A stretch of DNA of 64,000 nt. Origin: a virus (taxonomy: Duplodnaviria > Heunggongvirae > Uroviricota > Caudoviricetes). Below are positions 2,748 through 64,000 of this stretch, in pieces (position 1 is the first letter of the stretch; every line of letters begins with the position of its first letter). The stretch spans positions 1 through 64,000 of IMG/VR virus record IMGVR_UViG_3300035208_002255; one strand, 5' to 3'. A model generated the notes under the pieces. It was not told the DNA's origin, searched no databases, and saw only the letters and a list, made by a program, of their open reading frames with translations. A program made the translations under genes and the position numbers.

Positions 2748-3458
2748 ATGTATAGGGAAAAGTCATCAATCATTTGGTCATTAACAGAATCGGAATTCCG
2801 AGAACTTATTAAATCTTCCTCAACTTATAAAGAAGCTTTGATTAGGCTTGGTTTTGCCATAAAGTCCGGAGGAAACTATAAGACTTTAAAGAAGAGAATA
2901 CTAAGAGATAAAATAGATATTTCACACATTGAACGAAACAAACATCAATTTAGAGGTGTGGCTAAAGAAGAAATACCACTTGAGAAAATGCTTGTTAAAA
3001 ATTACCATAACTCAACTAGAAGTCTTAAACGAAAGTTATTAAACAGCGGATTGATTAAAAATCAATGTTTTAAATGTGGTCTTAAAGAAGAGTGGCAAGG
3101 AGAGCCTATCTCTTTGCAGCTTGATCATATCAATGGTGATCATGATGATAACCGATTAGAAAATCTAAGGATTCTTTGCCCAAACTGTCATTCACAGACA
3201 AATACTTATAGTGGTAAAAATTCACATCAAAGTAAAAGTCCAGATTGGATCTGCAAATGCGGAAGGCGTAAACACAAACAGTCAGATGTTTGTTACAGTT
3301 GTTTTAAACAACCGGAGAGAACTATTTGGCCATCTGATGATGATCTGATCAAGAAATCAGAAACACAATCAATACTAAGTATTGGAAAAGAACTTGGTGT
3401 TTCTGATAATTCTGTAAGAAAAAGGATTAAAAGAATTAGAGCGGGTAAAGAGAGTTGA
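2748..3458 (+). CDS. HNH homing endonuclease (paralog 1 of 3)
   Basis: LQLDHINGDHDDNRLENLRILCPNCH HNH motif; C-terminal LGVSDNSVRKRI helix-turn-helix; plus strand while neighbours are minus; paralogs at 43255 and 49747. Confidence 0.8.
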   Translation: MYREKSSIIWSLTESEFRELIKSSSTYKEALIRLGFAIKSGGNYKTLKKRILRDKIDISHIERNKHQFRGVAKEEIPLEKMLVKNYHNSTRSLKRKLLNSGLIKNQCFKCGLKEEWQGEPISLQLDHINGDHDDNRLENLRILCPNCHSQTNTYSGKNSHQSKSPDWICKCGRRKHKQSDVCYSCFKQPERTIWPSDDDLIKKSETQSILSIGKELGVSDNSVRKRIKRIRAGKES

Positions 3459-3665
3459 ACTCTTATATTTTGGTTGGAAGCCAAATGTAATAAGCCGTTA
3501 TACGACACCCGCAAAGTAATGAAATAAACCCTAGTGTCTACACTAGCACAGGAAAATTTTCCCGTTCCTTTGAAGATTATCTCATTAGTGTTGAGGTGGA
3601 ATATAAGCAATCTAAACGTCCCATATCCCCTTACTCTGCCTGGCAACCTCAACTCTGATTAATAC

Positions 3666-4571
3666 CTAGATATTACCTGTCTCGACCATTCTTTTCTCGG
3701 AAGATACAAAAATCGTTTGGTTACTCTTTAAATATTCGATGTAGTACTCGAAACTTTCATTTGCCAGAATTTCACCTTTGGATATTTTATCTTCTAGAAT
3801 GACTCTGATAGCACCAATCTCAGGGCCAATTGGGATACCCAATTTGAGAGAGATTTCATTACCAAGACCTTTCGGCAAACCCGAATGCTTGGAATCCTTC
3901 TCCCTGATTTCCCTGATCCTGGCCTTAAGTTCGTCAATTCTCCTGACGATCTTCTCTCGTTTCTTTGGTGAAGCAGTTGTAATATCAGACGCGCTCAAAG
4001 TCAAGAGATCTTCAAGGTACATGTCCATTTCTTTTGCGAACCTACGAACAGCCGAATCTGTCCACTCGTGTTCGTACCCTTCAGCGTACCCAAGATTGGA
4101 TACCAAGAAATGAATGCAGGTTTTTTGACCACAACTAAAGATATGGACTTTATTAGTGAACTTATCAAAGATCTTTGCAGAGATCTTCTCATGGTGATGG
4201 AACGTGACTTTGTTGTCCTTGATTGAAAAGGATTGAGCCTTTCCAAGGTCATGGAACAAAGCAGCCCACCTGAGGTTTAGCTTTGGAGGAGTTTGAGATA
4301 CAACACGAATAGTGTGTGGCCAAATCTCTTTGAATTGCTTTGAACTCTTTAGGTCCAAAGATTCCTGAATTTCCGGGATGAGCCAATCGAAGAACCCAGC
4401 CCGCTGAAGAACAACAAGCGCAAGTCCAACATGAGGACCAACCATTATCTCATGAAGAATGCGAAAGTCTTTCTTACCAAGCTCTTTCACTTCTTCTTTG
4501 GTAACTGGTATGAACTCATCATCACACTTACCATACAAAGCCAATGATCTGGCTTGTGTGAGTAATTTCAT
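3666..4571 (-). CDS. HD-domain phosphohydrolase (CCA-enzyme-like HD domain)
   Basis: 301 aa; AALFHDLGK HD motif, H...HD...D spacing; no nucleotidyltransferase head domain seen. Confidence 0.45.
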   Translation of the reverse strand: MKLLTQARSLALYGKCDDEFIPVTKEEVKELGKKDFRILHEIMVGPHVGLALVVLQRAGFFDWLIPEIQESLDLKSSKQFKEIWPHTIRVVSQTPPKLNLRWAALFHDLGKAQSFSIKDNKVTFHHHEKISAKIFDKFTNKVHIFSCGQKTCIHFLVSNLGYAEGYEHEWTDSAVRRFAKEMDMYLEDLLTLSASDITTASPKKREKIVRRIDELKARIREIREKDSKHSGLPKGLGNEISLKLGIPIGPEIGAIRVILEDKISKGEILANESFEYYIEYLKSNQTIFVSSEKRMVETGNI

Positions 4572-10765: not shown

Positions 10766-11973
10766 TACTCCATCAATTGACAGAGGACATCTTTTGGTTG
10801 GTTTAGAACAAATGCTCTTACCTTAACCTGTGAGATTCTTTCAATGATAATTTCGTTAGCTGCTTTTCTTCGACGTGCGGACTTCAACCCATCAATGTAG
10901 CTGAGTAGATATTCTGCATCAACCCTACGGGCAGCACTCTTAAATACAGCAAGTGTACTATCACTAAAGAATTCTTTAGCTTTTTCCGAACTAACCCCAG
11001 AAACAACCAAAGCCCGAATGTTTGGTTCCGGATCTGTTGCAAAGATAAGTTTATCATCATCTTTGAGAATTTCAAGAAGGTTTACTTTTAATGAGTTGTA
11101 TTTCCGATCACCACGGGTCGAAAGCTTTTTAGCCATCTGAACAATCATATCATAGCTAACATTGGTAATGTTTCGCCTTTCCCATTCCACAGACATGATT
11201 GAAATCATCTCATCAATTGACTTGAGTTTATACTGAAGGTCTAGGCGTTTACCTTCTACATAGGTACGCGTAACCTCCGTTTGATTCTTAAGCCATTCAA
11301 CAGCTTCATCAACCGGAATAATTCCAGAACAAACCTGGCGCAAGTAATTCTTCGGGGGTTTGTCCATAACAATTGATTGAACAACAATCCTTAAACGATC
11401 TTCCTCTTCCTCTGTAAACGAACGAGAATGAGAATCATTAGCATCGTAAACTTCAAATTCCAAAAGACCACGACGCACAATGGCGTACTTGGTTGACCGT
11501 GCAGCTGCGGGATTTTTCACAATAAGGATGTAAAAATCATTACCCCTATTGACATAATCCTCGTAGTACGTTTGGTCTTTCATGGTTGTACACCATTTGG
11601 TGTTCGAACCATAAGTAATCATTGCCGGCTTATCATCGACACGAATACATAGGAAGTCATCGTTCTCAAAGATCTTTTGAGCGCCTTCCTTATCTTTCTC
11701 TCGCTCCTGACGTTTTGAAAGACCCATAGACTTGATAAGGTCTTCAAGAGCTTTTAAATCTTTGTACTTGTTGATATCTTTTTCTTCGAATCGCTGAGGA
11801 TTCTCATGGAAGTATTTAATACTCGCTGAAATATCCGGAACGTTATGACCTTTCTTTAACTGTTTAGCAATCCATAAAAGGTATTTATTGCTACCATCAG
11901 AAGGATCATCTATCGTTAAAGCAATTTCAGCTTGTTCTGGATATTTCTTTTGAAGTAGTTCGACTCGATTCAT
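10765..11973 (-). CDS. hypothetical protein (about 400 aa)
   Basis: Long ORF; start set at MNRVELLQ to avoid overlap with the upstream gene. Confidence 0.45.
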   Translation of the reverse strand: MNRVELLQKKYPEQAEIALTIDDPSDGSNKYLLWIAKQLKKGHNVPDISASIKYFHENPQRFEEKDINKYKDLKALEDLIKSMGLSKRQEREKDKEGAQKIFENDDFLCIRVDDKPAMITYGSNTKWCTTMKDQTYYEDYVNRGNDFYILIVKNPAAARSTKYAIVRRGLLEFEVYDANDSHSRSFTEEEEDRLRIVVQSIVMDKPPKNYLRQVCSGIIPVDEAVEWLKNQTEVTRTYVEGKRLDLQYKLKSIDEMISIMSVEWERRNITNVSYDMIVQMAKKLSTRGDRKYNSLKVNLLEILKDDDKLIFATDPEPNIRALVVSGVSSEKAKEFFSDSTLAVFKSAARRVDAEYLLSYIDGLKSARRRKAANEIIIERISQVKVRAFVLNQPKDVLCQLME

Positions 11974-13420: not shown

Positions 13421-15412
13421 TCAGGATTTAGCGCCAACACTCAGCATGTAGTCTTCGATTTCGTTCACCGCCTCAATGAAGTGAGGTGAGCGCTTCATGC
13501 TTTTATCTCGTACGAACGGTAGAGGGGATCTGAACATCTTACGAATGTTTCCAGGATTCCTTCCCATCACGTAGATATCATCACCAAGATATACAGCTTC
13601 AGGAATATCATGGGTGACGAATACAACTGTTGGATTGATATCCGCCCAAATCTTAGCAAGAAGGTCCTGCATCTGTAGACGGGTTTCGATGTCCAAAGCT
13701 CCGAATGGTTCATCCATTAAAAGAATCTCTGAGTGATAAACCAGAGAGCGAGCAATTGCTACACGCTGAAGCTGGCCACCGGAAAGCGTTGGATACTGAG
13801 CGTATTTGTCTTCGTGACCTTCGAGACCCACAAGCTTGATCATTTCCATGGCTTTCTCTCTGCGCTGTTTGAGAGGAATGCCTTGGTATTCAAGACCCAG
13901 AGCCACGTTGTCAAGAACGCTCATCCATGGAAATGAAGAGTACTGTTGGAAGACCATTCCAACCCTATCTTCCTGTGTTCTTTCTCGCCCATGAATAAGG
14001 ATCTTTCCAGAAGTTGGGGTTTGAAGACCAGAGATATACCTAAGTATAGTTGAATTGTGAACAACAAATCCATTGGCCACAAAAGAATGAGATTCTGGAT
14101 TTGTTAGATCGTACACATCACTTTCTGATACTTCAATATTTGAAATTCTTCTATAATCGCGAATTAGAGGTTCTTTATTAGATTTTGGTTGTTGTTTTCT
14201 TCCTAGTTTAAACAGCTTATAAAGATTTTTAGATTGACGAATGTATACTCTATGAGATTTTCCACGAAATGATCTTTTGTATCCAATACCCATTGTAGAT
14301 AGCATAACGCATACAAAATCAATTAACTCTTTGGAATTTAATGCAATTTCGGCATCTTTATTATTTACACGAGAGTATCCATCTGTATCAAACAAACCTT
14401 GTAAAAATCGTAGTTGATGGTTGAACGAACTTTGTCGAATGCATTTTGGAACATCTTTTGTATCAGCATTAACATTACCAAAGATTTTGTGTAGCCAATA
14501 TGTAAAATGATTACTTTCTTTTGGTCGCAATAAAACTGCTTTTGTTCCATTTTTTTCACTTTGAGTAACTTCCACTCCAAATGTTTTTAGAGTGTATGTT
14601 TTGAAGAAATCGATCAATTCTTGATCGGCGGAAGTAAAACTAAATTGTTCACCAACAGAACCGTCGCCAGCAATCAAACCAAAATAATATGCAATGTTAC
14701 TAGATACAAAACCAGGAGCTTTAAACTTTGGTTTTTTGAGTTGATTTCTAACAACCCTATTAACAATCATTGGGCTAATATCTAGTAACTTTGCAATTTC
14801 TCTTTGGTTTAAACCTATCCTTTTATATCGTCGGATTTTTCGCTGCTTGGAAAAGAAACTTTTAGGAATTGCTCTGGGTAAACAGACCCGATCTTCCTGT
14901 GATTCGAAATTCATCTGCAAACCTTCTTTGGCAATAAAGTGCCCAATTTTAAGGTTTGCCATGGACATCCACTCTTCTTTGTTAGCAATTTTAACAAGAA
15001 CAGGATGTTCTGGAGTGCCCTCCAATCTATCTCCATCTTCTGTTGTTATGATTATAGTTTTTTTCTTACCACCATAATAAGTATGAGAGATTCTTTGATT
15101 CTCATTAGCTACCAGAACACCAAAATTGTTTCTTGGCATTGGCTGGTTTACCGGATGTTGTTCATCAAATAAATCTTCAATTCTACGAAGACCAGTTTCG
15201 CAAGTAACCCATGTACCTTTAGCTACACATTTGCCACAACCCGAAGCACCAAGCAAGACAACAAACTGTCCCTGATTCGGCTTGTCTTCAATGAGAAGAT
15301 TGAAGTCCTCGATGATAGGGGGCTTGCCATCATAGACCTGTGAAATACCACTCAATTCAATGATATCAGGAAGTTCTGTATTGGTGAATTTAACTGGTTG
15401 TTCCATAATCAA
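13421..15412 (-). CDS. ABC transporter ATP-binding protein (NitT/TauT family) interrupted by an intein
   Basis: Walker A GASGCGK is split; C-extein has LSGGQLQRVAIARSL, Walker B LLMDEPFGALD and an H-loop; 663 aa, of which 271 aa are extein. Confidence 0.85.
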   Translation of the reverse strand: MIMEQPVKFTNTELPDIIELSGISQVYDGKPPIIEDFNLLIEDKPNQGQFVVLLGASGCGKCVAKGTWVTCETGLRRIEDLFDEQHPVNQPMPRNNFGVLVANENQRISHTYYGGKKKTIIITTEDGDRLEGTPEHPVLVKIANKEEWMSMANLKIGHFIAKEGLQMNFESQEDRVCLPRAIPKSFFSKQRKIRRYKRIGLNQREIAKLLDISPMIVNRVVRNQLKKPKFKAPGFVSSNIAYYFGLIAGDGSVGEQFSFTSADQELIDFFKTYTLKTFGVEVTQSEKNGTKAVLLRPKESNHFTYWLHKIFGNVNADTKDVPKCIRQSSFNHQLRFLQGLFDTDGYSRVNNKDAEIALNSKELIDFVCVMLSTMGIGYKRSFRGKSHRVYIRQSKNLYKLFKLGRKQQPKSNKEPLIRDYRRISNIEVSESDVYDLTNPESHSFVANGFVVHNSTILRYISGLQTPTSGKILIHGRERTQEDRVGMVFQQYSSFPWMSVLDNVALGLEYQGIPLKQRREKAMEMIKLVGLEGHEDKYAQYPTLSGGQLQRVAIARSLVYHSEILLMDEPFGALDIETRLQMQDLLAKIWADINPTVVFVTHDIPEAVYLGDDIYVMGRNPGNIRKMFRSPLPFVRDKSMKRSPHFIEAVNEIEDYMLSVGAKS
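14054..15229 (-). mobile_element. intein (392 aa) with LAGLIDADG homing endonuclease domain in the ABC ATPase P-loop
   Basis: Starts with Cys right after GASGCGK, ends ...FVVHN followed by Ser; LAGLIDADG blocks YYFGLIAGDGS and LQGLFDTDGYS. Confidence 0.8.
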
Positions 15413-16443: not shown

Positions 16444-18000
16444 TTACATCTCCAAGATTTGGAACTCAGTTCGACGATTCCTTGCAAGGCAGACGGGAGT
16501 GTCTTCATTACAAGCGGGCTTGCTAGGTCCGTTACCAACAACAATGAAGCGGTTGGTATCGAAACCATGCTTTTGCACAAGATAGTCTACCACAGCTTGA
16601 GCACGTTGACGAGAAATTTGAATGTTAACTGCAGCAGATCCAGTCTTGTCAGTGTTACCCTCAACTCGAATACGAGATGTGGGGAACGCCTTCAATTGCT
16701 CAACAACCTTATCATCGATGATAGTCTGAGAATTCTCATCCAAGGTTACAGAACCATGAGCAAACGAAATCTTAACCGGCTTAGAAGCGACTGCATGAGC
16801 CGTAACATCGCGCTGAGTCGGAGCCGTAAACGTAGGCTTAGCCTCGGCAGCAACTTCGCCAGGAACCTGGAGAGAGCTAATGAACGAAGTATCAGCAACT
16901 ACATTCCAAGGTAGAGACTTGCTTGCGAGATTCAGACGACCGTAAACGGTAGTCATCTTCTCATAGATGCTTCGACCAGTTACACCAGCATACGAAGAGT
17001 TGAGACCGTAGAAGTCCTTGTTGTCGCCAAGGGTCGTGAGACGCACATTACCAAGAGACGCAAGAGCAAACTCTTTGGTAACATTCTGAAGGCCCTCAGA
17101 GAGGATCTGGGCCGCACGTTGCTTCGCAGCATCCGAACCGTTGATCTCAACAGCACCACGGAGCCAACCTTCAACCAGCTTCTTCAGATCAGCCTTGTGT
17201 GCATTGTAGTAAGCTTCCTTGACCATGAAGCCATCTGCAATGATGTTCGCCGCCTGCTTAGTGCTAACAAGCACCTTAGCTGCACTCACAGATTTCACAC
17301 AATCAGCATCATCCGGAGACCACACAACAGCTGCATCAACCTGTCCAGCCTTGAATGCTGCAGCTGCATCGATAGCACTGGGAACCTTGACAATGTTCAC
17401 ATCCATGATGCTAAGGCCACCCATATCTAACATCCACAACAGGAAGGTGTGAGACGGAGTTCCTTCAGCAACAGCAATCTTCTTTCCCTGAAGGTCAACA
17501 ACAGATCCAATGTTACTCTTAGTAACAATCGCATCACCACCACGAGACCAGTCAGCCTGGAAGAGGAACTTCACATTCTCGCCGTAATTGCCAGACTCAG
17601 TTGGGAAGGCGTCAACAGTCACCCACATAAGATCCATTGCACCAGACTTGAATGCCGCACGAGAAGCAGCGAAGTCATCCATCACGGAGAAGTTCACACA
17701 GATACCGTCCTGACGAAACTTGGAGTTCGCGTTATCTTTGAACCCATTGTTCCAGTACTGACCGCCGGCATAACCAGGCCATGTCACGACACCAACATTA
17801 ATACATCCGTTTCCAGCTGCGGAAGTTCCGGAAACAGATCCAGAAGCTCCAGGACCAGCCATCAGGCCAGAGACATCTTGTTGTCCCTTACCCTGAGGAA
17901 GAATGTACGGAGCACCAAACTTGTACCCAACGAACATAAATGTTGCGATGAGTGCAAGAATAACAATCTTACCACCAGCCTTAATCTTTACCTTAGCCAT
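16444..18000 (-). CDS. ABC substrate-binding protein (SsuA/TauA/NMT1-like) fused to C-terminal OmpA-like domain
   Basis: N-terminal transmembrane anchor, PBP2 fold, C-terminal NTDKTGSAAVNIQISRQRAQAVVDYL...NRRTEF OmpA signature. Confidence 0.65.
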   Translation of the reverse strand: MAKVKIKAGGKIVILALIATFMFVGYKFGAPYILPQGKGQQDVSGLMAGPGASGSVSGTSAAGNGCINVGVVTWPGYAGGQYWNNGFKDNANSKFRQDGICVNFSVMDDFAASRAAFKSGAMDLMWVTVDAFPTESGNYGENVKFLFQADWSRGGDAIVTKSNIGSVVDLQGKKIAVAEGTPSHTFLLWMLDMGGLSIMDVNIVKVPSAIDAAAAFKAGQVDAAVVWSPDDADCVKSVSAAKVLVSTKQAANIIADGFMVKEAYYNAHKADLKKLVEGWLRGAVEINGSDAAKQRAAQILSEGLQNVTKEFALASLGNVRLTTLGDNKDFYGLNSSYAGVTGRSIYEKMTTVYGRLNLASKSLPWNVVADTSFISSLQVPGEVAAEAKPTFTAPTQRDVTAHAVASKPVKISFAHGSVTLDENSQTIIDDKVVEQLKAFPTSRIRVEGNTDKTGSAAVNIQISRQRAQAVVDYLVQKHGFDTNRFIVVGNGPSKPACNEDTPVCLARNRRTEFQILEM

Positions 18001-18002
18001 GA

Positions 18003-19034
18003 TTATCCTTTATTGTTGAAGAAGCTCGCCATTGCAGACGAAGTTTGTGTTTGGGTTTCGTATCCGGTATATTCTGGCAATGCTTGGGTTTCAGTTCCAG
18101 TCGTTGCAATTCGAACCTTACCAACATTGCGCTTGTCTTCGTAACTCAACAGGGAACCATTCTGCTCGAAACTTTCCAACATTGCAAGTCCTTTTTCATC
18201 CCAGACTCCGTTTTGCAGATCAACGTTCATCATGAAGCCTTCGGACAACTCCATGAAAGTCTCCATCTCCCCGAGTTTATTGGCAATGTCTTCGGCAAGG
18301 AATTCGGCCGATTGCTCGAATAGTTCCTTTGCTTCCGAACCGGCAACCAAAACTTCGGCGGACTTCATTGCCTTGTGCGCAGCCTTGACAGACTTGTATT
18401 CCATTTCCAAAATACGAATCTGATCTGCAGTATCATCACGAAGGAACGAAACAGAGTTCCGCATCTTCATAAGAATACGACCAAGGAACTCCATCTTCTC
18501 ACTGATGGTTTGAAGCTTCTTGATGAAATCCTGAGAACGCGCCGCCTTTCGAGCATTTGCAGCAATAGCTACTTGATTATTATTCTTCTTGGCAGCATTC
18601 GCCATATGCATGGCATCCTCTGCAATTTGCCTCTCTTCAGCAATGGTACGATCAAGCTTCTTCTTCTGACCATTTAGCTTGCCGATATTATCAGCAATGG
18701 CTTGAAGACGCTCATCCATGTCATCAAGGTAATTCTTGAGAATACCAATCGGATCAATAGTGATAAAGAAACTAGTTAATGCGCGCATTGCACTCTTGAA
18801 CATTGCTCCGGCAAGTGCTCGTACCTTGTTATTCATCACCAATGCAATAAGAGCAAAGAGTGTACCACCAAGGAATGCGGCATATAAAGTGTTAGCTAGA
18901 GCTGCAATAATGAATGGCATCAGATAGTTTCCAGCAAATAGGAAACCAAGGATACCAATGAAAATGAAGATCATTCCAGTGCGCCCCTCAGGACGCTCGA
19001 AGAAACCTTTTACCTTACGTTGCATGTCTTCCAT
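18003..19034 (-). CDS. membrane-anchored coiled-coil protein
   Basis: Two N-terminal transmembrane helices, then a long heptad-rich region. Confidence 0.45.
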   Translation of the reverse strand: MEDMQRKVKGFFERPEGRTGMIFIFIGILGFLFAGNYLMPFIIAALANTLYAAFLGGTLFALIALVMNNKVRALAGAMFKSAMRALTSFFITIDPIGILKNYLDDMDERLQAIADNIGKLNGQKKKLDRTIAEERQIAEDAMHMANAAKKNNNQVAIAANARKAARSQDFIKKLQTISEKMEFLGRILMKMRNSVSFLRDDTADQIRILEMEYKSVKAAHKAMKSAEVLVAGSEAKELFEQSAEFLAEDIANKLGEMETFMELSEGFMMNVDLQNGVWDEKGLAMLESFEQNGSLLSYEDKRNVGKVRIATTGTETQALPEYTGYETQTQTSSAMASFFNNKG

Positions 19035-20668: not shown

Positions 20669-22972
20669 TTAGGTTGCCTTTTCCATCAGAGTCTTGTTAC
20701 CAGTCAGGTATTGAAGTAGTGCGAGTGACATGAGTCCACTCTGATCCTTCTCACCAGAAGAACCACCTCCAACATACACATCAGGAATGAGCTTTAGCTT
20801 GTTACTAGCAATTCGCTCCACAACCTGAATCTGACCGAAGACCTCATTACCCATAGCTTGAACCTGAAGCTTGTAAGCTTCAGCATTGGACTTACCTTGT
20901 TCTAGGATAACGAGAGCTTGTGCAAGACCCTTCTTCTCGATAGCTTCTGCGTCCGCAACTGCGTTGACCTTAGTTGCTTCAGCGTCAGCACCTGCCTTCA
21001 AACGTGTTGCCTTCGCAGCACCCTCAGCACGAATCTCGACAGCACGAGCATCACCAGTGGATTTCTCGATCTCTGCATTTGCAAAGTTCTTCGAGATTTC
21101 AACACCACGCTCTGCCTCTACAACCTTGGGCTGCATATTAGCCTGAGCCTTAGCATTTTCAAACTGACGGCGCTCTTCCTGAGCTTGCTTCTGAGTGGTG
21201 AAGGTCATCTTCTCTTGCTCAGCAATTTGTCGATCTGTAACTGTACGAGTCAGCTCAGTGGGAAGAACAACATCTGCAATCATCGTATCCTTGGATTCGA
21301 TGTGGTGAATGCGAAGCACGCTCTGGATATGTTCCTTGGCGCGCTCTTGCAGTTCAGCACGTTTGGTGTACAAATCCAATGCCTTAACGGATTGTGCTGC
21401 GTTACGGAAGTGAGATGAGATTGCGGGTTCGAGAACCTGCGAAATCATGTTGTCTACAGATCCTAGGTTTGCAACAACCTTCGGAGCGTCTGACATTGCG
21501 ATATGGATAATAACAGAGACATCCATATTCGCATTAAACGCATCAGCGGTACGCAGAGTGATGGTTTTCAGATTGGAATCCAAAGCATGAGCGCTGGACT
21601 CGTTGTCTGCCCAATTCAAAAGAATCTGAGTTGTAGGCACCTTATCAACCTTACAGACGCGAGTGTTGATTGGATGCTTGCCAGGTCCAAGAGGCTCAGC
21701 CCAAATACCCTTCTTACCAGTCTGGACAATCTTCGCGTTCACGTCCGCGTTTGTGGTATCTTCACCTTCATCACCAACGAATGAGGTTACAACACCACAT
21801 TCACCAATGCAGACCTCAACCATTGGAACTTGTTCAATCATTGCGAACCAAGGATTGATAGCATAGTTACCAGAGCGAAGAACCGGAATCTGCAGACCCT
21901 TCTGACCCTTTTCAGCAAGAAATGCAGCGGCATTTTGGAAGTTATTATGAACCTCGATGGATACTTCATTAGCTGCAATCTTGGATGCATCGATAATTGG
22001 ACGACCTTCAAGGATAGTTACAATACCGATAGCCTCTGGTCCAATATAGACCCAAGGAACAACCTTCACGATGTTAAACAGGGCTGTATTGATACGATAC
22101 GTTCCTGGCATGAGAATCTCAAGCTGATGACCTTTCTGACCACCATTCTGCAAGAATGCATTACCATTCTCAAAGTTTGAATGCCCATCAACTTTTTTAC
22201 CAAGAAGAGATCCGTCAGGAATACGAGATCCATCCATTGCAGAGATAAGGCCCATATGACCGTTCGGAATCACGGTGACAGGCTTATTCTCAACATGGAA
22301 CAATCTTGTATTGATACGGTAGTTTCCAGGAGGAAGAACAGCAATCTGAGGACCCTTTTGACCACCATTCTTAAGGAACAAGTCTGCGTCCTGGAAGTGA
22401 TCGCAATCAACGGGTTCAGCGAAAATACGACCAACAGCACAAGCCTGACCTGCAATAGATTCAACGAGACCAATTTCATCTTCTCCGATGATAATAGCCT
22501 TCTCAATATTAATCACAAATAGATGTGGGTTAATCTGATATTGGCCAGGAGGCAAGATGGCCAGCTGGGGCCCTTTCTCTCCACCATTCTTCAGGAATGC
22601 TTCACCATCTTGAAACAGATTACAATCAATGGTCTTAGCAAAGAATTGTCCAGTAGGCATTGGCTTACCGGTAATTGCAGTAATAATACCGATCTGGTGA
22701 GTGCCAATGTTGGTGAACTTATGTTTTGTAACAGTGTTGATAAAAGGAATGAAGAAGTGGATACCAGGGCCGAGCGTACGGGCCTGAACACCAACCTCAT
22801 TTCCAATAGCAACGGTACGACCATCTGTCATGGTCTTACCGAAATATTTGCGTTCGAACGTAATGAATTCATCACCACCAGCAATAGCAAAACTGGTGAA
22901 GAAGAAAACCAGTCCGACGATTGCCCCGATAATGACGAGGTAATGCGCCAAAATGAAATTCAGAATAAACAT
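20669..22972 (-). CDS. flotillin/SPFH (band-7) family protein with five N-terminal ~55-aa tandem repeats
   Basis: N-terminal transmembrane segment; repeats FLKNGG.KGPQ...PG.Y.IN..LF; SPFH core; C-terminal AEAEA/EAIEKKG flotillin-type repeats. Confidence 0.65.
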   Translation of the reverse strand: MFILNFILAHYLVIIGAIVGLVFFFTSFAIAGGDEFITFERKYFGKTMTDGRTVAIGNEVGVQARTLGPGIHFFIPFINTVTKHKFTNIGTHQIGIITAITGKPMPTGQFFAKTIDCNLFQDGEAFLKNGGEKGPQLAILPPGQYQINPHLFVINIEKAIIIGEDEIGLVESIAGQACAVGRIFAEPVDCDHFQDADLFLKNGGQKGPQIAVLPPGNYRINTRLFHVENKPVTVIPNGHMGLISAMDGSRIPDGSLLGKKVDGHSNFENGNAFLQNGGQKGHQLEILMPGTYRINTALFNIVKVVPWVYIGPEAIGIVTILEGRPIIDASKIAANEVSIEVHNNFQNAAAFLAEKGQKGLQIPVLRSGNYAINPWFAMIEQVPMVEVCIGECGVVTSFVGDEGEDTTNADVNAKIVQTGKKGIWAEPLGPGKHPINTRVCKVDKVPTTQILLNWADNESSAHALDSNLKTITLRTADAFNANMDVSVIIHIAMSDAPKVVANLGSVDNMISQVLEPAISSHFRNAAQSVKALDLYTKRAELQERAKEHIQSVLRIHHIESKDTMIADVVLPTELTRTVTDRQIAEQEKMTFTTQKQAQEERRQFENAKAQANMQPKVVEAERGVEISKNFANAEIEKSTGDARAVEIRAEGAAKATRLKAGADAEATKVNAVADAEAIEKKGLAQALVILEQGKSNAEAYKLQVQAMGNEVFGQIQVVERIASNKLKLIPDVYVGGGSSGEKDQSGLMSLALLQYLTGNKTLMEKAT

Positions 22973-28436: not shown

Positions 28437-29044
28437 AAACTCTTGACTTTGTTGAGAACAATATCAGCTGAACGAAGCGTATCTTCTAGAGGGCCTGAAT
28501 TATCAATCACATAGTTAGCATACTTGAGACGTTCATCTGAACTTATTTGGGAATGAATTCTGTTTAGAACATCATCTTTTGACAAATGAGTATTTCTATC
28601 CAAGACTCTTTGGATTTGAATATCCAAGTCAATATGAACAACAACAATGGGCCTGTAGTTTTCGAAATTGCTTTTCTCGATTAGTAAAGCGTTGTCATAA
28701 CAAGCTAGTTCATATCCTTTTAATTCAAGTACCGAAATCTCATCGGACATCAATTGTCCGATTACTGGAAACATAATGACTTCCAAATCTTTCAAACGAT
28801 CTTTATCACTGAAGACAACAGACCCCATCTTTTTACGGTCAATGACTCCATCGCTTCGAAAAACAACATCTCCAAATACACGTCTGATTGATTCAAGCGT
28901 ATTTAAACCAATTGCTGTATTAGGATCTACAGCTTTACGTGATAAGATATCCGGATCAATAATAGGTAGACCTTGCTGTGCCCAATGTTTTGACACAGTA
29001 GACTTGCCACATCCAATCCCACCTGTAAGACCAAAGATTTTCAT
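28433..29044 (-). CDS. coaE: dephospho-CoA kinase
   Basis: GLTGGIGCGKST P-loop characteristic of CoaE; 203 aa. Confidence 0.75.
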   Translation of the reverse strand: MKIFGLTGGIGCGKSTVSKHWAQQGLPIIDPDILSRKAVDPNTAIGLNTLESIRRVFGDVVFRSDGVIDRKKMGSVVFSDKDRLKDLEVIMFPVIGQLMSDEISVLELKGYELACYDNALLIEKSNFENYRPIVVVHIDLDIQIQRVLDRNTHLSKDDVLNRIHSQISSDERLKYANYVIDNSGPLEDTLRSADIVLNKVKSL

Positions 29045-30078
29045 TTGCTGTTATCTGAATCAAAAAGGTCTGCTGTATTCTCTAGAATGGTAGATAGTTG
29101 CTCATTTATTCCAAAGCGCTCCTTGTTATGAGTAATGCTTTTTAGAATGTTACCATCCGCATGACGTTGCGAACTAGCAAACCAATCACAAAACATTTCT
29201 ACAATATCAACAAGTGTCATATCACTAATATATGAATCTTCTTTTGTCTTTAACAAAGTTCCTGTAAATGTTAAATCTAAATGCTTTCCACCATTATTAA
29301 TACAATTCCATATTGCTGAAGCTCTTGCTTTATCATAACCCCTTTCTCTTAGTTCTTTTTCCATTTTATTAATTCCAAGAGTGGTTATGTCTAACTCTTC
29401 GCAAGTTACTTCATATTTTATATTTGCTTTTTTCAGATCATTATCATATGCATGAATTTGATTTTCAGATGAAGTTACCCATTCTAAATTAGAAATGTGA
29501 TTATCATCTTTAATACCATTTTTATGATTAACTTCTGATTTTTTATCATCGTTATCAATAAATGCTTCAGCTACTAAACGATGTACCATTGCATTTTTTC
29601 GATTATCTCCATCTTGCAACTGTAACCTGCAATAACCTTTAGGTGTTATATATTGCTTTAAAAGAATTCCTTGTTTGAAACATGAACCTGTTGGGCCTGA
29701 TCTATCAACAATTCTATTTTTACTTCTAACTCTTCCATGATTTGAAACTTCATGTGAAGTTTCAAATCCAACAACCGGTCGCCATTCTTCTATATTTTCA
29801 AAGAATTCTGGATGATGACGATTTTTGGCGTAATGATGGTCGAGAGCCACCTTCATTTCAGCTCTGCATTTATTGTATTCGTCAGATCCATACGTCATAC
29901 CTTTTAGACGATCTGTGTAAATAGCAAACACTGGAGCTTCAACATCACCAAGTTTTGACTGATCATGTTGTTCGCCTCGTTTTAAAAGTTCAACAGCAAA
30001 GACTCTAAGATATCGGCGAACGTTATCGATGTGATTCCGGGTTTCTTCGTTTGATGCTAATTCTTGTTGAGTTTTCAT
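29041..30078 (-). CDS. HNH_3/NUMOD4-type homing endonuclease with N-terminal HD-like segment
   Basis: NUMOD4 WRPVVGFE..YEVSNHGRVRS, HNH_3 HRLVAEAF...VNHKNGIKDDNHISNLEWVT; N-terminus H(x23)HDQSK...DHHYAKNRHH. Confidence 0.6.
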   Translation of the reverse strand: MKTQQELASNEETRNHIDNVRRYLRVFAVELLKRGEQHDQSKLGDVEAPVFAIYTDRLKGMTYGSDEYNKCRAEMKVALDHHYAKNRHHPEFFENIEEWRPVVGFETSHEVSNHGRVRSKNRIVDRSGPTGSCFKQGILLKQYITPKGYCRLQLQDGDNRKNAMVHRLVAEAFIDNDDKKSEVNHKNGIKDDNHISNLEWVTSSENQIHAYDNDLKKANIKYEVTCEELDITTLGINKMEKELRERGYDKARASAIWNCINNGGKHLDLTFTGTLLKTKEDSYISDMTLVDIVEMFCDWFASSQRHADGNILKSITHNKERFGINEQLSTILENTADLFDSDNSK

Positions 30079-31712: not shown

Positions 31713-32336
31713 TTCATTTTAATTTCTAGATGGAAAGACATCTTCTTTAGAGAAATTGTCATACATTAAGGAAATGTGACTAAGTTGGTATGGCTGAACG
31801 CTTAAAGGTCTAACCATAGTTAGAACTTCCATCCAGCCATGAACCGCACAGGATTCGAACCTATATTTCCTACACTTAGCATTGTCCGGACAATGCTAAA
31901 TGTGGCGTTCCTAAACCATTTAAACTAGCGGCACGAGGAGTTGAAATCTATCACATCGAAACTTGATGTCAAGAACTTTTTGTAGGACGAGTCAGGGTTG
32001 AACGATAACTTTTAAAACTCTGACAACTGCTGGCGTGAACCGCTAGCTATCCTGTTTCGAGATGCGAAGTTACTACTAGAAGTTCTGGAAGTCAAGCTTT
32101 TTCTTTTGGGGCCTACTGTTTCAGGGATTCAATTGGGCCACCATTTGGAACGAAAACAAAATCACGAAAACCACTGTTCCATAACTGCATCATAGGTGAT
32201 TTTCTCACCATTGCTAGATGTAGCGTTGCCTTCCAAAATGACACCCTCAAACCAAAGGTGAATGCTAAACCAAACCTTATCCTTTGGTAATCTACGAATT
32301 GCGTCACCAACTAACGCCGACTCCAATCCAATATCT

Positions 32337-58248: not shown

Positions 58249-58407
58249 ATAAAGAACAACGAAAAAGCGAGACCAGTTTTGTTTTTAAGCTTCCTGGCCG
58301 TTGTATTAGTTCTTTCGAACTAGTGGCCAGGGTTGGATTCGAACCAACAATCTATTTCTTTTCATGGAATTGCTTTGCCGATGAAAGATCTCTAACGCGT
58401 TGTTCAG

Positions 58408-58486
58408 TGGATGCAGTAGGATTTGAACCTACAAGTCTGTGAGGAACCGGAGCGATCCGGCGGGCCGCCAATTGCCCAATACATCC
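58408..58486 (-). pseudogene. tRNA-Tyr-like paralog with disrupted anticodon loop
   Basis: Acceptor, D-arm and T-arm nearly identical to tRNA-Tyr at 58588; anticodon region CCGGA-TCGC-TCCGG has a 4-nt loop. Confidence 0.4.
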
Positions 58487-61989: not shown

Positions 61990-62385
61990 ATGTGGCATTA
62001 TTCGGTACAGGATTCTATGAAGATACAGAATGTTAAGACAATTGGGGATATTGAAAACCAAGCTGATAGTAAGGGGCGAGGTTCTGTATTCAGGGCTTGT
62101 CTCGCAATTCAGCGCTCATCTAGTACAGAAGAGATTGGTTCCAAAGCATTTGAGTTAGGTTATAATTATGTAGCAGGAATAGATACCATAAAACAGCTAA
62201 AAGCGCTTGTTGATGAAGTTTTCCCAAAATCAGAGGGAGAATTCAAACAAGCGCTTCAAGCTCTTAAGAATGCTCTCGAAGATGCCCCTTCAATTAAGAA
62301 GGTTCTAGCAGCTTTGATGGTAGTACCAAAAAGATGTGGTGGTTTAGATTATCCTTCAGTATCCGCCAGAGTTAAACCAACCTGA
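61990..62385 (+). CDS. hypothetical protein (plus strand)
   Basis: 131 aa ORF. Confidence 0.4.
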   Translation: MWHYSVQDSMKIQNVKTIGDIENQADSKGRGSVFRACLAIQRSSSTEEIGSKAFELGYNYVAGIDTIKQLKALVDEVFPKSEGEFKQALQALKNALEDAPSIKKVLAALMVVPKRCGGLDYPSVSARVKPT

Positions 62386-62538
62386 ACCTTTTAGCTGAAA
62401 ACCCTGACCACCCGAAACCAATCGCTGGGCCTCGGGTTTCTTGCATTCGGGACATTCGGTAAGTGGCGGATCTGTAATCTTAGCCTCATGTTCCCAAGTG
62501 TGTCCACAACTTTTACACGTATACTCGTATGTTGGCAT
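62356..62538 (-). CDS. FmdB-family zinc-ribbon protein
   Basis: MPTYEYTCKSCGHTWE...CPECK pattern. Confidence 0.5.
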   Translation of the reverse strand: MPTYEYTCKSCGHTWEHEAKITDPPLTECPECKKPEAQRLVSGGQGFQLKGSGWFNSGGY

Positions 62539-62572
62539 GGTTTTCCTTCATTCAGTGTTTATGAAACATATA

Positions 62573-64000
62573 TCACATCATTGTTGCTGCCAAGTTAGCA
62601 AGTTCAGAACGCTCACCCTTGGAAAGGGTTAGGTGACCAACTATTGGATTGTTATAAAGTTTCTCGATAGCAAAGCTCAATCCACATGATCCTTTATCCA
62701 TGTAAGGATTGTCAATCTGATCTGGGTCACCAGTCAAAACGATCTTGGTTCCATCACCACAACGAGTGATAATGGTTTTTAATTCATGAGGCGAAAGATT
62801 CTGGGCCTCGTCCACGATTAAGAACTGATTTGGAATGCTTCTACCACGAATATAAGTCAGTGGTTCAACCTTAATTAAGTCCTGTTTATACAGATCCTCA
62901 AACTTCATGTTTGTCTTCTTTTTACCAGAAGTCATCATTAGAAGTTCTAGGTTATCATAAATAGGTTGCATGTAAGGATCGAGCTTCTCTAAAAGAGTGT
63001 TGTGGGTAACAATAAAATCATCAGTTAAATACAAATGCTCTTCGTTTTCAATAAGTATACATTGACATTCCTTAACACCAACAAATTCTATTGATTTAAT
63101 CCTTGCATCATAAATATATGCACACTTGAATCTTTCACGTTTTCTTTCGATAAAGAAAGGATTCAAATTCTCTGGTAAAGAAATATTGAATTCATATGAA
63201 AGAAATTTTGGTGATATAGTCCTATTTTTTATGATTGATTTTTTACCAATTCTATCTCTTGATTTTATTTGGGCCCTACCACCAAGAGACTTTACAACCT
63301 CACAAACATCTTTTGCTAATTGTAAAGATGTTGTTGTAAATGATGCTTCTCCATTTGCTTTAACTGTACCGTCAGTATCCATCAAACCCCTAATTAGATT
63401 TATTCTATCTTCAACAGAAGAATATTTATACATATCAGGGATGAATTTATTATTACAAACTTTACCAAGTAAACCTAAATTATATATTGCATTTTTAACT
63501 GGATTAGACCATCTATTTTCATTTTCTACAAATTTATAAAAGTAGCCATCAATAGTTACATTTCTGGTACATTTATTATATATTGTAGATGTGTTAATGT
63601 CTGTTTTTTCTGCACAGATTCCAATTCGTGTATAGTTATAAACTTCACCAGTATTTGTATCAGTTATTTCAATTTGTCTTGCTGGTTTATTATTTGGTAT
63701 ATCTGAAACAATATTGTAATTAATTCCACATGGTTTAGATAAATAACAATTTAATTCTTTAACTTCTTCATTTACTCTTTGCGCAATTTCAACATCATTA
63801 TTTGATAATAATATTGATGTGCATAAAGATCCATCACCAAGTAAAGCGCCAAGAGTATATGGTTTTATAGGAAGTGACTTAACTTTATATTCTACAGGTT
63901 CATTTCTTGGAAGATAATGATTTAACTTTCCGTTTTTAGTTAGTGTATTTATTATCTCTCTTGTAGTTTTTATACTACCACTCTTATTTCTTTTCTTCTG
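62573..64000 (-). CDS. PhoH-like ATPase interrupted by an intein (partial, runs off the window edge)
   Basis: C-extein LIVDEAQNLSPHELKTIITRCGDGTKIVLTGDPDQID is PhoH-like; the minus-strand frame stays open with no stop from 63434 to 64000. Confidence 0.7.
   Translation of the reverse strand, partial: QKKRNKSGSIKTTREIINTLTKNGKLNHYLPRNEPVEYKVKSLPIKPYTLGALLGDGSLCTSILLSNNDVEIAQRVNEEVKELNCYLSKPCGINYNIVSDIPNNKPARQIEITDTNTGEVYNYTRIGICAEKTDINTSTIYNKCTRNVTIDGYFYKFVENENRWSNPVKNAIYNLGLLGKVCNNKFIPDMYKYSSVEDRINLIRGLMDTDGTVKANGEASFTTTSLQLAKDVCEVVKSLGGRAQIKSRDRIGKKSIIKNRTISPKFLSYEFNISLPENLNPFFIERKRERFKCAYIYDARIKSIEFVGVKECQCILIENEEHLYLTDDFIVTHNTLLEKLDPYMQPIYDNLELLMMTSGKKKTNMKFEDLYKQDLIKVEPLTYIRGRSIPNQFLIVDEAQNLSPHELKTIITRCGDGTKIVLTGDPDQIDNPYMDKGSCGLSFAIEKLYNNPIVGHLTLSKGERSELANLAATMM
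62999..64000 (-). mobile_element. intein with LAGLIDADG endonuclease domain inside the PhoH-like gene (N-terminal junction outside the window)
   Basis: LGALLGDGSL and LIRGLMDTDGT LAGLIDADG blocks; ends ...FIVTHN followed by Thr. Confidence 0.7.

Follow-up and report, generated by a model that had tools for sequence, protein, structure and literature searches.

The right-hand end of a 64,000-nucleotide (nt) stretch of viral DNA (IMG/VR record IMGVR_UViG_3300035208_002255, positions 1 to 64,000; Caudoviricetes; hereafter the window) raises the question of what kind of gene joins a LAGLIDADG endonuclease motif to part of a PhoH ATPase within a single minus-strand open reading frame (ORF), listed as 286 amino acids (aa) long and starting with a Met codon at 63433. 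A previous reading of the letters and their ORFs (the sequence-only reading) had proposed a PhoH-like gene carrying an intein and cut short by the window edge, with its true start and the N-terminal intein junction beyond position 64000. The source of the window is an uncultured, tRNA-rich large phage, and our analysis indicates that the locus is very probably a phage PIN-PhoH (PhoH2-like) gene interrupted by a 406-aa class 3 intein with a PI-SceI-like LAGLIDADG homing endonuclease.

Translation of the minus strand from 64000 to 62573 reveals 475 codons without a stop, ending in the C-terminus ...LANLAATMM followed by TGA, and thus an open frame up to the window edge as had been claimed. Both LAGLIDADG blocks lie where the sequence-only reading placed them (Table 1), as does the C-terminal junction ...FIVTHN/T (63016-62996; here and below, a slash marks an intein junction or, in intein-free sequences, the corresponding site). 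Pfam analysis of the window fragment identified PhoH at residues 333-461 (E = 2.3e-28, 99.6 bits against a cut-off of 27), in keeping with the PhoH-like C-extein reported earlier, with a match to profile positions 69-188 of 205 that covers the C-terminal part of the domain only. The same fragment matched LAGLIDADG_3 (E = 4e-8, 33.8 bits, cut-off 22.5) and Hom_end (E = 4.5e-4), the NCBIfam models for PhoH2, PhoH and several "intein-containing" families, and PhoH families in PHROGs at E = 3e-41, together with terminase families of the same collection, which evidently hold related inteins. Since profiles match PhoH, LAGLIDADG_3 and the PhoH families of PHROGs, a chance resemblance is excluded. 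Likewise, because the frame runs past the window edge, the listed 286-aa ORF (62573..63433) is an artefact, truncated as suspected and beginning at the intein-internal Met262.

The missing 5' part of the gene was located on a second assembly. An exact search with a 45-mer from the window edge gave no match in IMG/VR or GTDB genomes and a single occurrence in the JGI metagenome set, on contig Ga0172381_10011988 (L003; 8,205 nt). This contig is identical to window positions 64000-59167 (100%, ungapped, 4,834 nt) and runs 3,371 nt past the window edge. It carries the frame, with zero stops, to an ATG located 1,098 nt beyond the edge (L003:2274, virtual position 65098), defining an uninterrupted 841-aa ORF. 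The in-frame stop or frameshift upstream of 63433 that the sequence-only reading had named as speaking against it is therefore absent, the L003 frame being uninterrupted upstream. The precursor comprises an N-extein (residues 1-294, with a PIN domain and the PhoH Walker A motif), the 406-aa intein (295-700) and a C-extein (701-841), and window positions 62576-64000 make up the 3' 1,425 nt of the 2,526-nt gene. The intein corresponds to L003:3156-4373, with its N-terminus 216 nt past the window edge at virtual 64216; its residues 1-72, which include block A and a block B with His64 and Trp66, occupy virtual 64216-64001 (L003:3156-3371). Both the N-terminal junction and the true start hence lie beyond 64000, as anticipated.

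In the 841-aa protein encoded by L003, Pfam places a PIN_4 domain over residues 5-142 (E = 7.5e-31) and also matches LAGLIDADG_3 and, split over two stretches, PhoH (E = 5.3e-44). The spliced 435-aa product, bearing the restored motif GFLPGTLLEKLDPY, aligns with positions 2-422 of the 427 in the NCBIfam PhoH2 model NF053827 (E = 1.6e-76) at 258 bits, without reaching the equivalog cut-off of 680 bits. We therefore refer to it as PhoH2-like: the architecture is shared but the score is far under the cut-off, and the protein is not an equivalog of bacterial PhoH2. Alignment of the spliced exteins, which had been put forward as a check, is gapless across the junction when made against the sequence of 3B85, with gflpgtllekldpy facing GFLPGTLNEKIDPY; to our knowledge, 3B85 is the only solved PhoH structure. 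The intein sits between Walker A (GLAGTGKT, in the N-extein) and Walker B (DEAQN, in the C-extein), within the strictly conserved motif GFLPG/T(L)xEK. With Walker A and Walker B thus separated inside a conserved motif, the precursor would presumably lack ATPase activity until it is spliced.

Table 1. Features of the interrupted phoH2 gene within the window.
Feature	Position	Strand	Basis
TGA stop of phoH2 gene	62573..62575	-	translation
C-extein, residues 701-841 of the 841-aa precursor; C-terminal half of PhoH ATPase domain; first residue is the predicted nucleophile Thr+1 (62998-62996)	62576..62998	-	Pfam PhoH and intein-free homologs
Walker B DEAQN of PhoH ATPase, in C-extein (VDEAQN = 62815-62798)	62798..62812	-	translation; aligned to 3B85 sequence
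In-window part of the intein, residues 73-406 of 406	62999..64000	-	tblastn of L003 intein, 100% over 64000-62999
First LAGLIDADG motif (block C) LGALLGDGS, acidic Asp128	63827..63853	-	translation
Second LAGLIDADG motif (block E) GLMDTDGT, acidic Asp282	63365..63388	-	translation, Pfam, phmmer to PI-SceI
Internal intein Met262, false start codon of listed ORF	63431..63433	-	ORF list compared with full frame
Inter-motif segment NNKPARQIEITDTNTGEVYNY...NNKFIP, weakly NUMOD1-like helix-turn-helix	63458..63715	-	Pfam below threshold; conserved in homologs
Cys386, block F position 4, proposed class 3 initiating nucleophile, 20 residues ahead of Asn406	63059..63061	-	homolog alignment; pairs with Cys118 of 6BS8
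Block G Thr404-His405-Asn406: Thr of the Trp/Cys/Thr triplet, penultimate His, terminal Asn	62999..63007	-	translation, homolog alignment

Homologs with and without the insertion define its limits. More than 100 of the PhoH proteins retrieved by a protein search share an insertion at this position, with about 50% identity over the whole fragment; a collection of 5.8 billion proteins held zero exact copies, its best intein-bearing match being 54% identical. Seven homologs of 431-437 aa are intein-free, six of them with 92-99% extein identity; for P0088 and P0094-98, which lack the intein, identity over the C-extein is 97-99%. Where the intein-bearing proteins read ...GFLPG/PQPLD...THN/T..., those without it have ...MGKDIGFLPG/[TS]LMEKLDPYMQP. 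We examined the contigs of three intein-free alleles, L001 (233,817 nt), L164 and L167. All three are syntenic with the window (phoH2, a 60-aa zinc-ribbon gene, more genes and a phosphatase), and L001 additionally matches several of the window's tRNA stretches. Nucleotide homology between L001 and L003 runs to L003 nt 3154 and picks up again at nt 4375, with the intein (3156-4373) falling between; on the L001 side, the two matching segments abut at 10887/10888. Homology of the window itself to L001 starts at 62997, one base into the Thr+1 codon, and the intein-free site of L001 reads, over some 40 bp, ...GGCTTTCTTCCAGGC/TCTTTGATGGAAAAGC. DNA homology breaks exactly at both junctions, and the intein-free siblings fix the insertion site to the nucleotide.

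The separate 286-aa ORF that the ORF list gives from Met 63433 would fit a free-standing LAGLIDADG endonuclease gene, or a permanently kept in-frame domain insertion in phoH, in place of an intein. We assign this explanation a negligible chance: neither boundary has a stop or start signal and the 841 codons are continuous, HINT blocks with homology to solved inteins flank the insert, its last residues are His-Asn with Thr next, and it lies exactly between residues adjacent in the intein-free orthologs, splitting the Walker A and Walker B halves of the ATPase fold. A free-standing endonuclease gene and a bacterial intein-like (BIL-type) domain, considered as candidates, were ruled out by the continuous frame, the terminal Asn with Thr+1, and the conserved host motif.

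We next consider to which mechanistic class the intein belongs. Class 3 inteins are defined by the lack of an N-terminal nucleophile (Ser, Thr or Cys) and by a Trp/Cys/Thr (WCT) triplet, with Trp at block B position 12, Cys at block F position 4 and Thr at block G position 5, followed by Ser or Thr at +1 (Tori et al., 2010, PMC2807308); residue numbering for further members is given in PMC5222942. The intein in phoH2 starts with Pro-Gln-Pro-Leu, leaving position 1 without Cys, Ser or Thr. Its block B, ...CCEDHLW, places His64 at position 10 and Trp66 at position 12, block F reads ...ECQC386IL, and block G is V-T404-H405-N406, with Thr+1 next. We aligned the query with 120 database proteins, giving 121 sequences of which 114 have the insertion. 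Among these 114, the triplet is conserved as Trp in 107, Cys in 113 and Thr in 112, the penultimate His is found in 113 and the terminal Asn in 112, and position +1 is Thr in 98 and Ser in 12; at intein position 1, 77 have Pro and 6 have Cys, and five of those with Cys begin CQP at the GFLPG site. By its signature residues, which are the same as those of the mycobacteriophage Bethlehem DnaB prototype, the intein is classified as mechanistic class 3.

Comparison with solved inteins using phmmer supports homology to the HINT fold. The best matches were gp41-1 (E = 1e-12), Mycobacterium smegmatis (Msm) DnaBi1 (6BS8, E = 5e-8) and 6RIX/6RIY (E = 4e-7 to 1e-6). The latter two entries are deposited as replicative DNA helicase, and we equate them with the M. 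chimaera class 3 intein described in PMC7664689. In the phmmer alignment Cys386 pairs with the catalytic Cys118 of Msm DnaBi1 (6BS8), and splicing blocks A, B, F and G are all homologous to those of known inteins.

These residues suggest the following course of events. The 841-aa precursor would be made as a single chain. As Pro1 leaves the intein without an N-terminal nucleophile, Cys386 (block F position 4) is the candidate initiator, and would attack the Gly294-Pro1 peptide bond, assisted by the variant block B (His64, Trp66), to yield a thioester branched intermediate. The N-extein would then be passed to Thr+1, cyclisation of Asn406 would free the intein, and an O-to-N acyl shift would produce the 435-aa PhoH2. 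A genuine intein could instead splice by another route, either a class 2-like direct attack by Thr+1, a residue that is indeed present, or a hybrid route in which Cys386 merely coordinates, as does the block F Asp of class 1 inteins. A minority of same-site relatives that combine Cys1 with the triplet would be compatible with such a scheme, and for WCT inteins a class 2 or a class 3 path is in principle conceivable until Cys F4 is mutated (Tori et al., PMC5222942). Mutation of Cys F4 abolished splicing in every WCT intein so assayed, the +1 residue being unable to initiate (PMC2807308, PMC5222942), and the triplet is almost invariant in the family, as would be expected if it were catalytic; another route is accordingly quite improbable, and the class 3 pathway is preferred.

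Within the intein, the two LAGLIDADG motifs delimit a predicted two-motif endonuclease domain with both acidic residues intact. Asp128 and Asp282, as well as Gly283, are invariant in an alignment of 12 intein sequences, Asp128 is present in 104 of 109 homologs, and phmmer matches intein residues 230-312 to PI-SceI (E = 4e-5). The segment between the motifs is conserved in homologs and weakly resembles a NUMOD1 helix-turn-helix, with a Pfam score below threshold (E = 0.044, 14.5 bits against a cut-off of 22.8). The endonuclease would cut intein-free phoH2 alleles during co-infection, whereupon the intein would be copied into them (homing), and homing would account for its patchy presence among near-identical phages.

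The locus is compositionally and phylogenetically discordant. GC content is 24-33% across the intein, mostly about 28%, and about 40% in the extein and neighbouring genes, with the break at the junction. Identity of the intein to its nearest relatives is 54-61%, the exteins of those relatives are 31-55% identical, and the nearest exteins (92-99%) are intein-free; because intein and extein identities are discordant, we infer that intein and host gene have different histories. We further compared the spliced coding sequence with the three intein-free alleles, to which it is 84.6-88.9% identical. Across the whole gene, changes confined to the intein-bearing allele are densest in a 60-nt window centred on the insertion site, with 10 against 2.6 expected (binomial P = 3e-4; permutation P = 0.024 for a maximum anywhere), and the sole amino-acid change beside the junction is Met to Leu at +3. 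On the basis of these four alleles, the substitution peak is suggestive of a co-conversion tract or of escape from the endonuclease's own target.

The intein might also have decayed, with splicing lost or the endonuclease dead, so that phoH2 would be a pseudogene or the element fixed and immobile. Inactive endonucleases are common among inteins, and one class 3-type intein proved to be a pseudogene (PMC3196547). In this locus, though, the 841-codon frame is intact and all splicing residues are conserved along with both LAGLIDADG aspartates, while the foreign base composition (GC), the siblings that lack the intein and the clustering of substitutions in its flanks point to a recent arrival and not to long decay, which makes decay very improbable.

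Several observations nonetheless weigh against an active class 3 intein as described here. Splicing chemistry and endonuclease activity are inferred from the intact motifs. Pro1, His64 and Trp66 lie outside the window and are taken from L003, a separate assembly identical over 4.8 kb. The five CQP relatives at this site have Cys1 together with the triplet, and therefore some members of the family might use a class 1 route, alone or additionally. The proposed intein profile search was borne out in part: LAGLIDADG_3 scored above its cut-off, and the Pfam Intein_splicing and Hint models remained below threshold (Hom_end_hint E = 0.022, Hint_2 E = 0.071); these models thus speak neither for nor against the assignment to HINT, which rests on the phmmer matches and the splicing blocks. 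Finally, the co-conversion signal is modest, a stricter set of sites giving 7 substitutions against 2.0 expected with a permutation P of 0.25. 

Block B of the intein has a further feature. Cys61 (block B position 7) is shared by 104 of 109 sequences and the adjacent Cys60 (position 6) is nearly invariant (L003:3333-3338), the window copy having an additional Cys384 two residues from Cys386 (63067-63059). Class 3 inteins described so far have Ser or Asp at block B position 7. These cysteines raise the idea, which we consider rather unlikely, of a redox- or metal-sensitive switch on phage PhoH2 operating through conditional splicing. A disulfide between Cys61 or Cys60 and Cys386, or a zinc site, would hold the precursor unspliced, and PhoH2 would stay off until the infected cell is reducing; Cys60 and Cys61 lie near the motif His64, in the block B that would act at the N-terminal junction proposed for attack by Cys386. 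A parallel is the Cys48-Cys118 disulfide trap shown in M. smegmatis DnaBi1 (PMC6195587).

The surroundings of phoH2 differ among the related contigs. In the intein-free siblings encoding P0088, a TnpB/IS605 OrfB (Cas12f-like) gene lies directly upstream of phoH2 (L164:3840-4991 and L165:675-1826). L003, L001 and L167 have an opposite-strand DUF5661 gene upstream, to which L167 adds a 162-aa ORF in between. The region around phoH2 looks like a hotspot for mobile elements. Downstream, some 560 additional nt (L001:11314-11879) separate phoH2 from the zinc-ribbon gene in L001 and L002, with a called ORF of 66 or 161 aa; the corresponding gap in the window is only about 35 nt (62573-62538).

The sequence-only reading had called the phoH2 element a second intein, and there is indeed another one in the window. 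A canonical class 1 intein with a LAGLIDADG domain interrupts the Walker A loop of an ABC-transporter ATPase gene on the minus strand at 13421-15412 (...GASGCGK/CVAKGTWV...FVVHN/STILRY), with Pfam matches to ABC_tran (E = 7e-24), Intein_splicing (E = 3e-13) and LAGLIDADG_3 (E = 2.5e-15). As this class 1 intein and the putative class 3 intein of phoH2 share the window, one phage region would host two mechanistic classes. A 345-aa minus-strand ORF at 29041-30078 combines DUF5662 (in two stretches) with NUMOD4 and HNH_3, and may represent a further mobile endonuclease, either inserted in a phage gene or fused to one.

Other genes in the window relate to the phage itself. ARAGORN predicts 37 tRNA genes in the 64 kb (1014-58968), all on the minus strand, a set in line with a very large phage that brings its own translation toolkit. 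The calls include a tRNA at 31840-31934 with anticodon UUA, which would read the UAA stop and might allow reassignment or suppression of stop codons (phoH2 itself ends in TGA), an odd two-base anticodon at 58407-58486, and two long tRNA-like calls of 95-99 nt. Minus-strand genes at 20669-22972, 18003-19034 and 16444-18000 encode, respectively, an SPFH/Band 7 protein, a PspA/IM30-like protein, and a protein with a periplasmic-binding domain and OmpA, a set of membrane-stress and envelope genes that is unusual in a phage.

Scans with the intein alignment retrieved 236 relatives from GTDB genomes and no fewer than 588 from IMG/VR. Of this wider family 160 loci were kept, all at 29-38% identity except four at 43-56%, and were parsed with tblastn anchoring. 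Most are inteins of the same kind, follow the pattern [A]QPL...C.DHLW.T...IVTHN/[TS] and are inserted after the Walker A lysine (GxGK, then the intein, then T or S); judged by eye, their flanks look like DnaB-type, SNF2-type, terminase-type and other ATPases. Three intein sites can be distinguished in PhoH: the P-loop (e.g. L005, L087), GFLPG/T (L004, L084-L086), and ...YMRGR/.../TLNDAF..DEAQN, the last found in Modestobacter, Trueperaceae and Deinococcales metagenome-assembled genomes (L033, L037, L046, L047). One 830-aa protein (P0001, ENA; alignment columns 1-330) has an extra LAGLIDADG intein ending ...DDCILTHN/TL, apparently in the Walker A region upstream of its GFLPG-site intein; since P0001 carries both, two inteins can coexist in one phoH.

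Among 50,697 GenBank phage records, megablast of window positions 62000-64000 found no match. In the same records, PhoH identity to this extein does not exceed 40%, the highest values coming from uncultured phages and from Bacillus jumbo phages such as AR9 and PBS1, and the intein has no relative above 38% identity, those listed standing under helicase, primase or terminase annotations. We found no earlier description of the GFLPG/T site in the literature, and it may be a PhoH insertion site not yet described, with more than 100 Pro1-type members, so far only in metagenome assemblies.

For annotation, the consequence is that the 286-aa ORF should give way to an 841-aa precursor that would mature to a 435-aa PIN-PhoH protein, a case in which gene callers and Pfam intein models overlook class 3 inteins of this type. 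A full-length putative class 3 intein with an endonuclease, exact empty sites and a co-conversion-like footprint offers a convenient natural allele pair for the study of homing between large phages, and is consistent with the proposal of Tori and Perler that class 3 inteins originated in phages. The gain is modest: this is a well-preserved class 3 example, PhoH inteins and class 3 PhoH inteins were already known, and no concept is changed.

Known systems resemble the phoH2 intein in different parts. PI-SceI (yeast VMA1; 1VDE, 1LWS) shares the intein-embedded two-motif LAGLIDADG domain and the Pfam Hom_end match, but is a class 1 intein (Cys1) of a eukaryotic V-ATPase and is without the extra inter-motif segment found here. 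The cyanophage-like metagenomic split intein gp41-1 (6QAZ, 6RIZ), although the best solved match (residues 4-82) and also ending in THN, is a naturally split class 1 intein with Cys1 and no endonuclease, and its wild-type form (6QAZ) has Asp at the block F position occupied here by Cys. Msm DnaBi1 (6BS8) and M. chimaera DnaB1 (6RIX, 6RIY) match in blocks A and B (E = 5e-8 to 1e-6) and align in blocks F and G, including the catalytic Cys and THN; in contrast to the phoH2 intein, they are endonuclease-free mini-inteins with Ala1 and with Asp at block B position 7.

The host family is shared with bacterial PhoH inteins, of which 21 have been reported in Actinobacteria and Deinococcus-Thermus (Novikova et al., 2016, PMC4760082), and with the class 3 PhoH inteins (PhoHi) of M. 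fortuitum and M. xenopi (Kelley et al., 2018, PMC6195587). The mycobacterial ones also have the WCT triplet. Bacterial PhoH inteins are chromosomal, whereas the present one interrupts a phage PIN-PhoH gene at GFLPG/T. The actinobacterial and Deinococcales examples in our survey occupy ...YMRGR/AQPL...THN/TLNDAF..DEAQN and start with Ala, and, judging from taxa alone, the published bacterial PhoH inteins, including the mycobacterial ones, may use this MRGR site rather than GFLPG/T.

The mycobacteriophage Bethlehem (MP-Be) DnaB intein (PMC2807308) is likewise phage-borne and full length, with an endonuclease domain between blocks B and F and a P-loop ATPase or helicase as host. Its Pro1, His65 and Trp67 correspond to Pro1, His64 and Trp66 here, and it has Cys320, Thr339, His340, Asn341 and Thr+1, with Cys F4 placed 21 residues before the Asn (20 in the phoH2 intein). 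The two differ in host (DnaB and PhoH2, respectively), in insertion site and at block B position 7, which is Ser62 in the MP-Be intein and Cys61 in the phoH2 intein.

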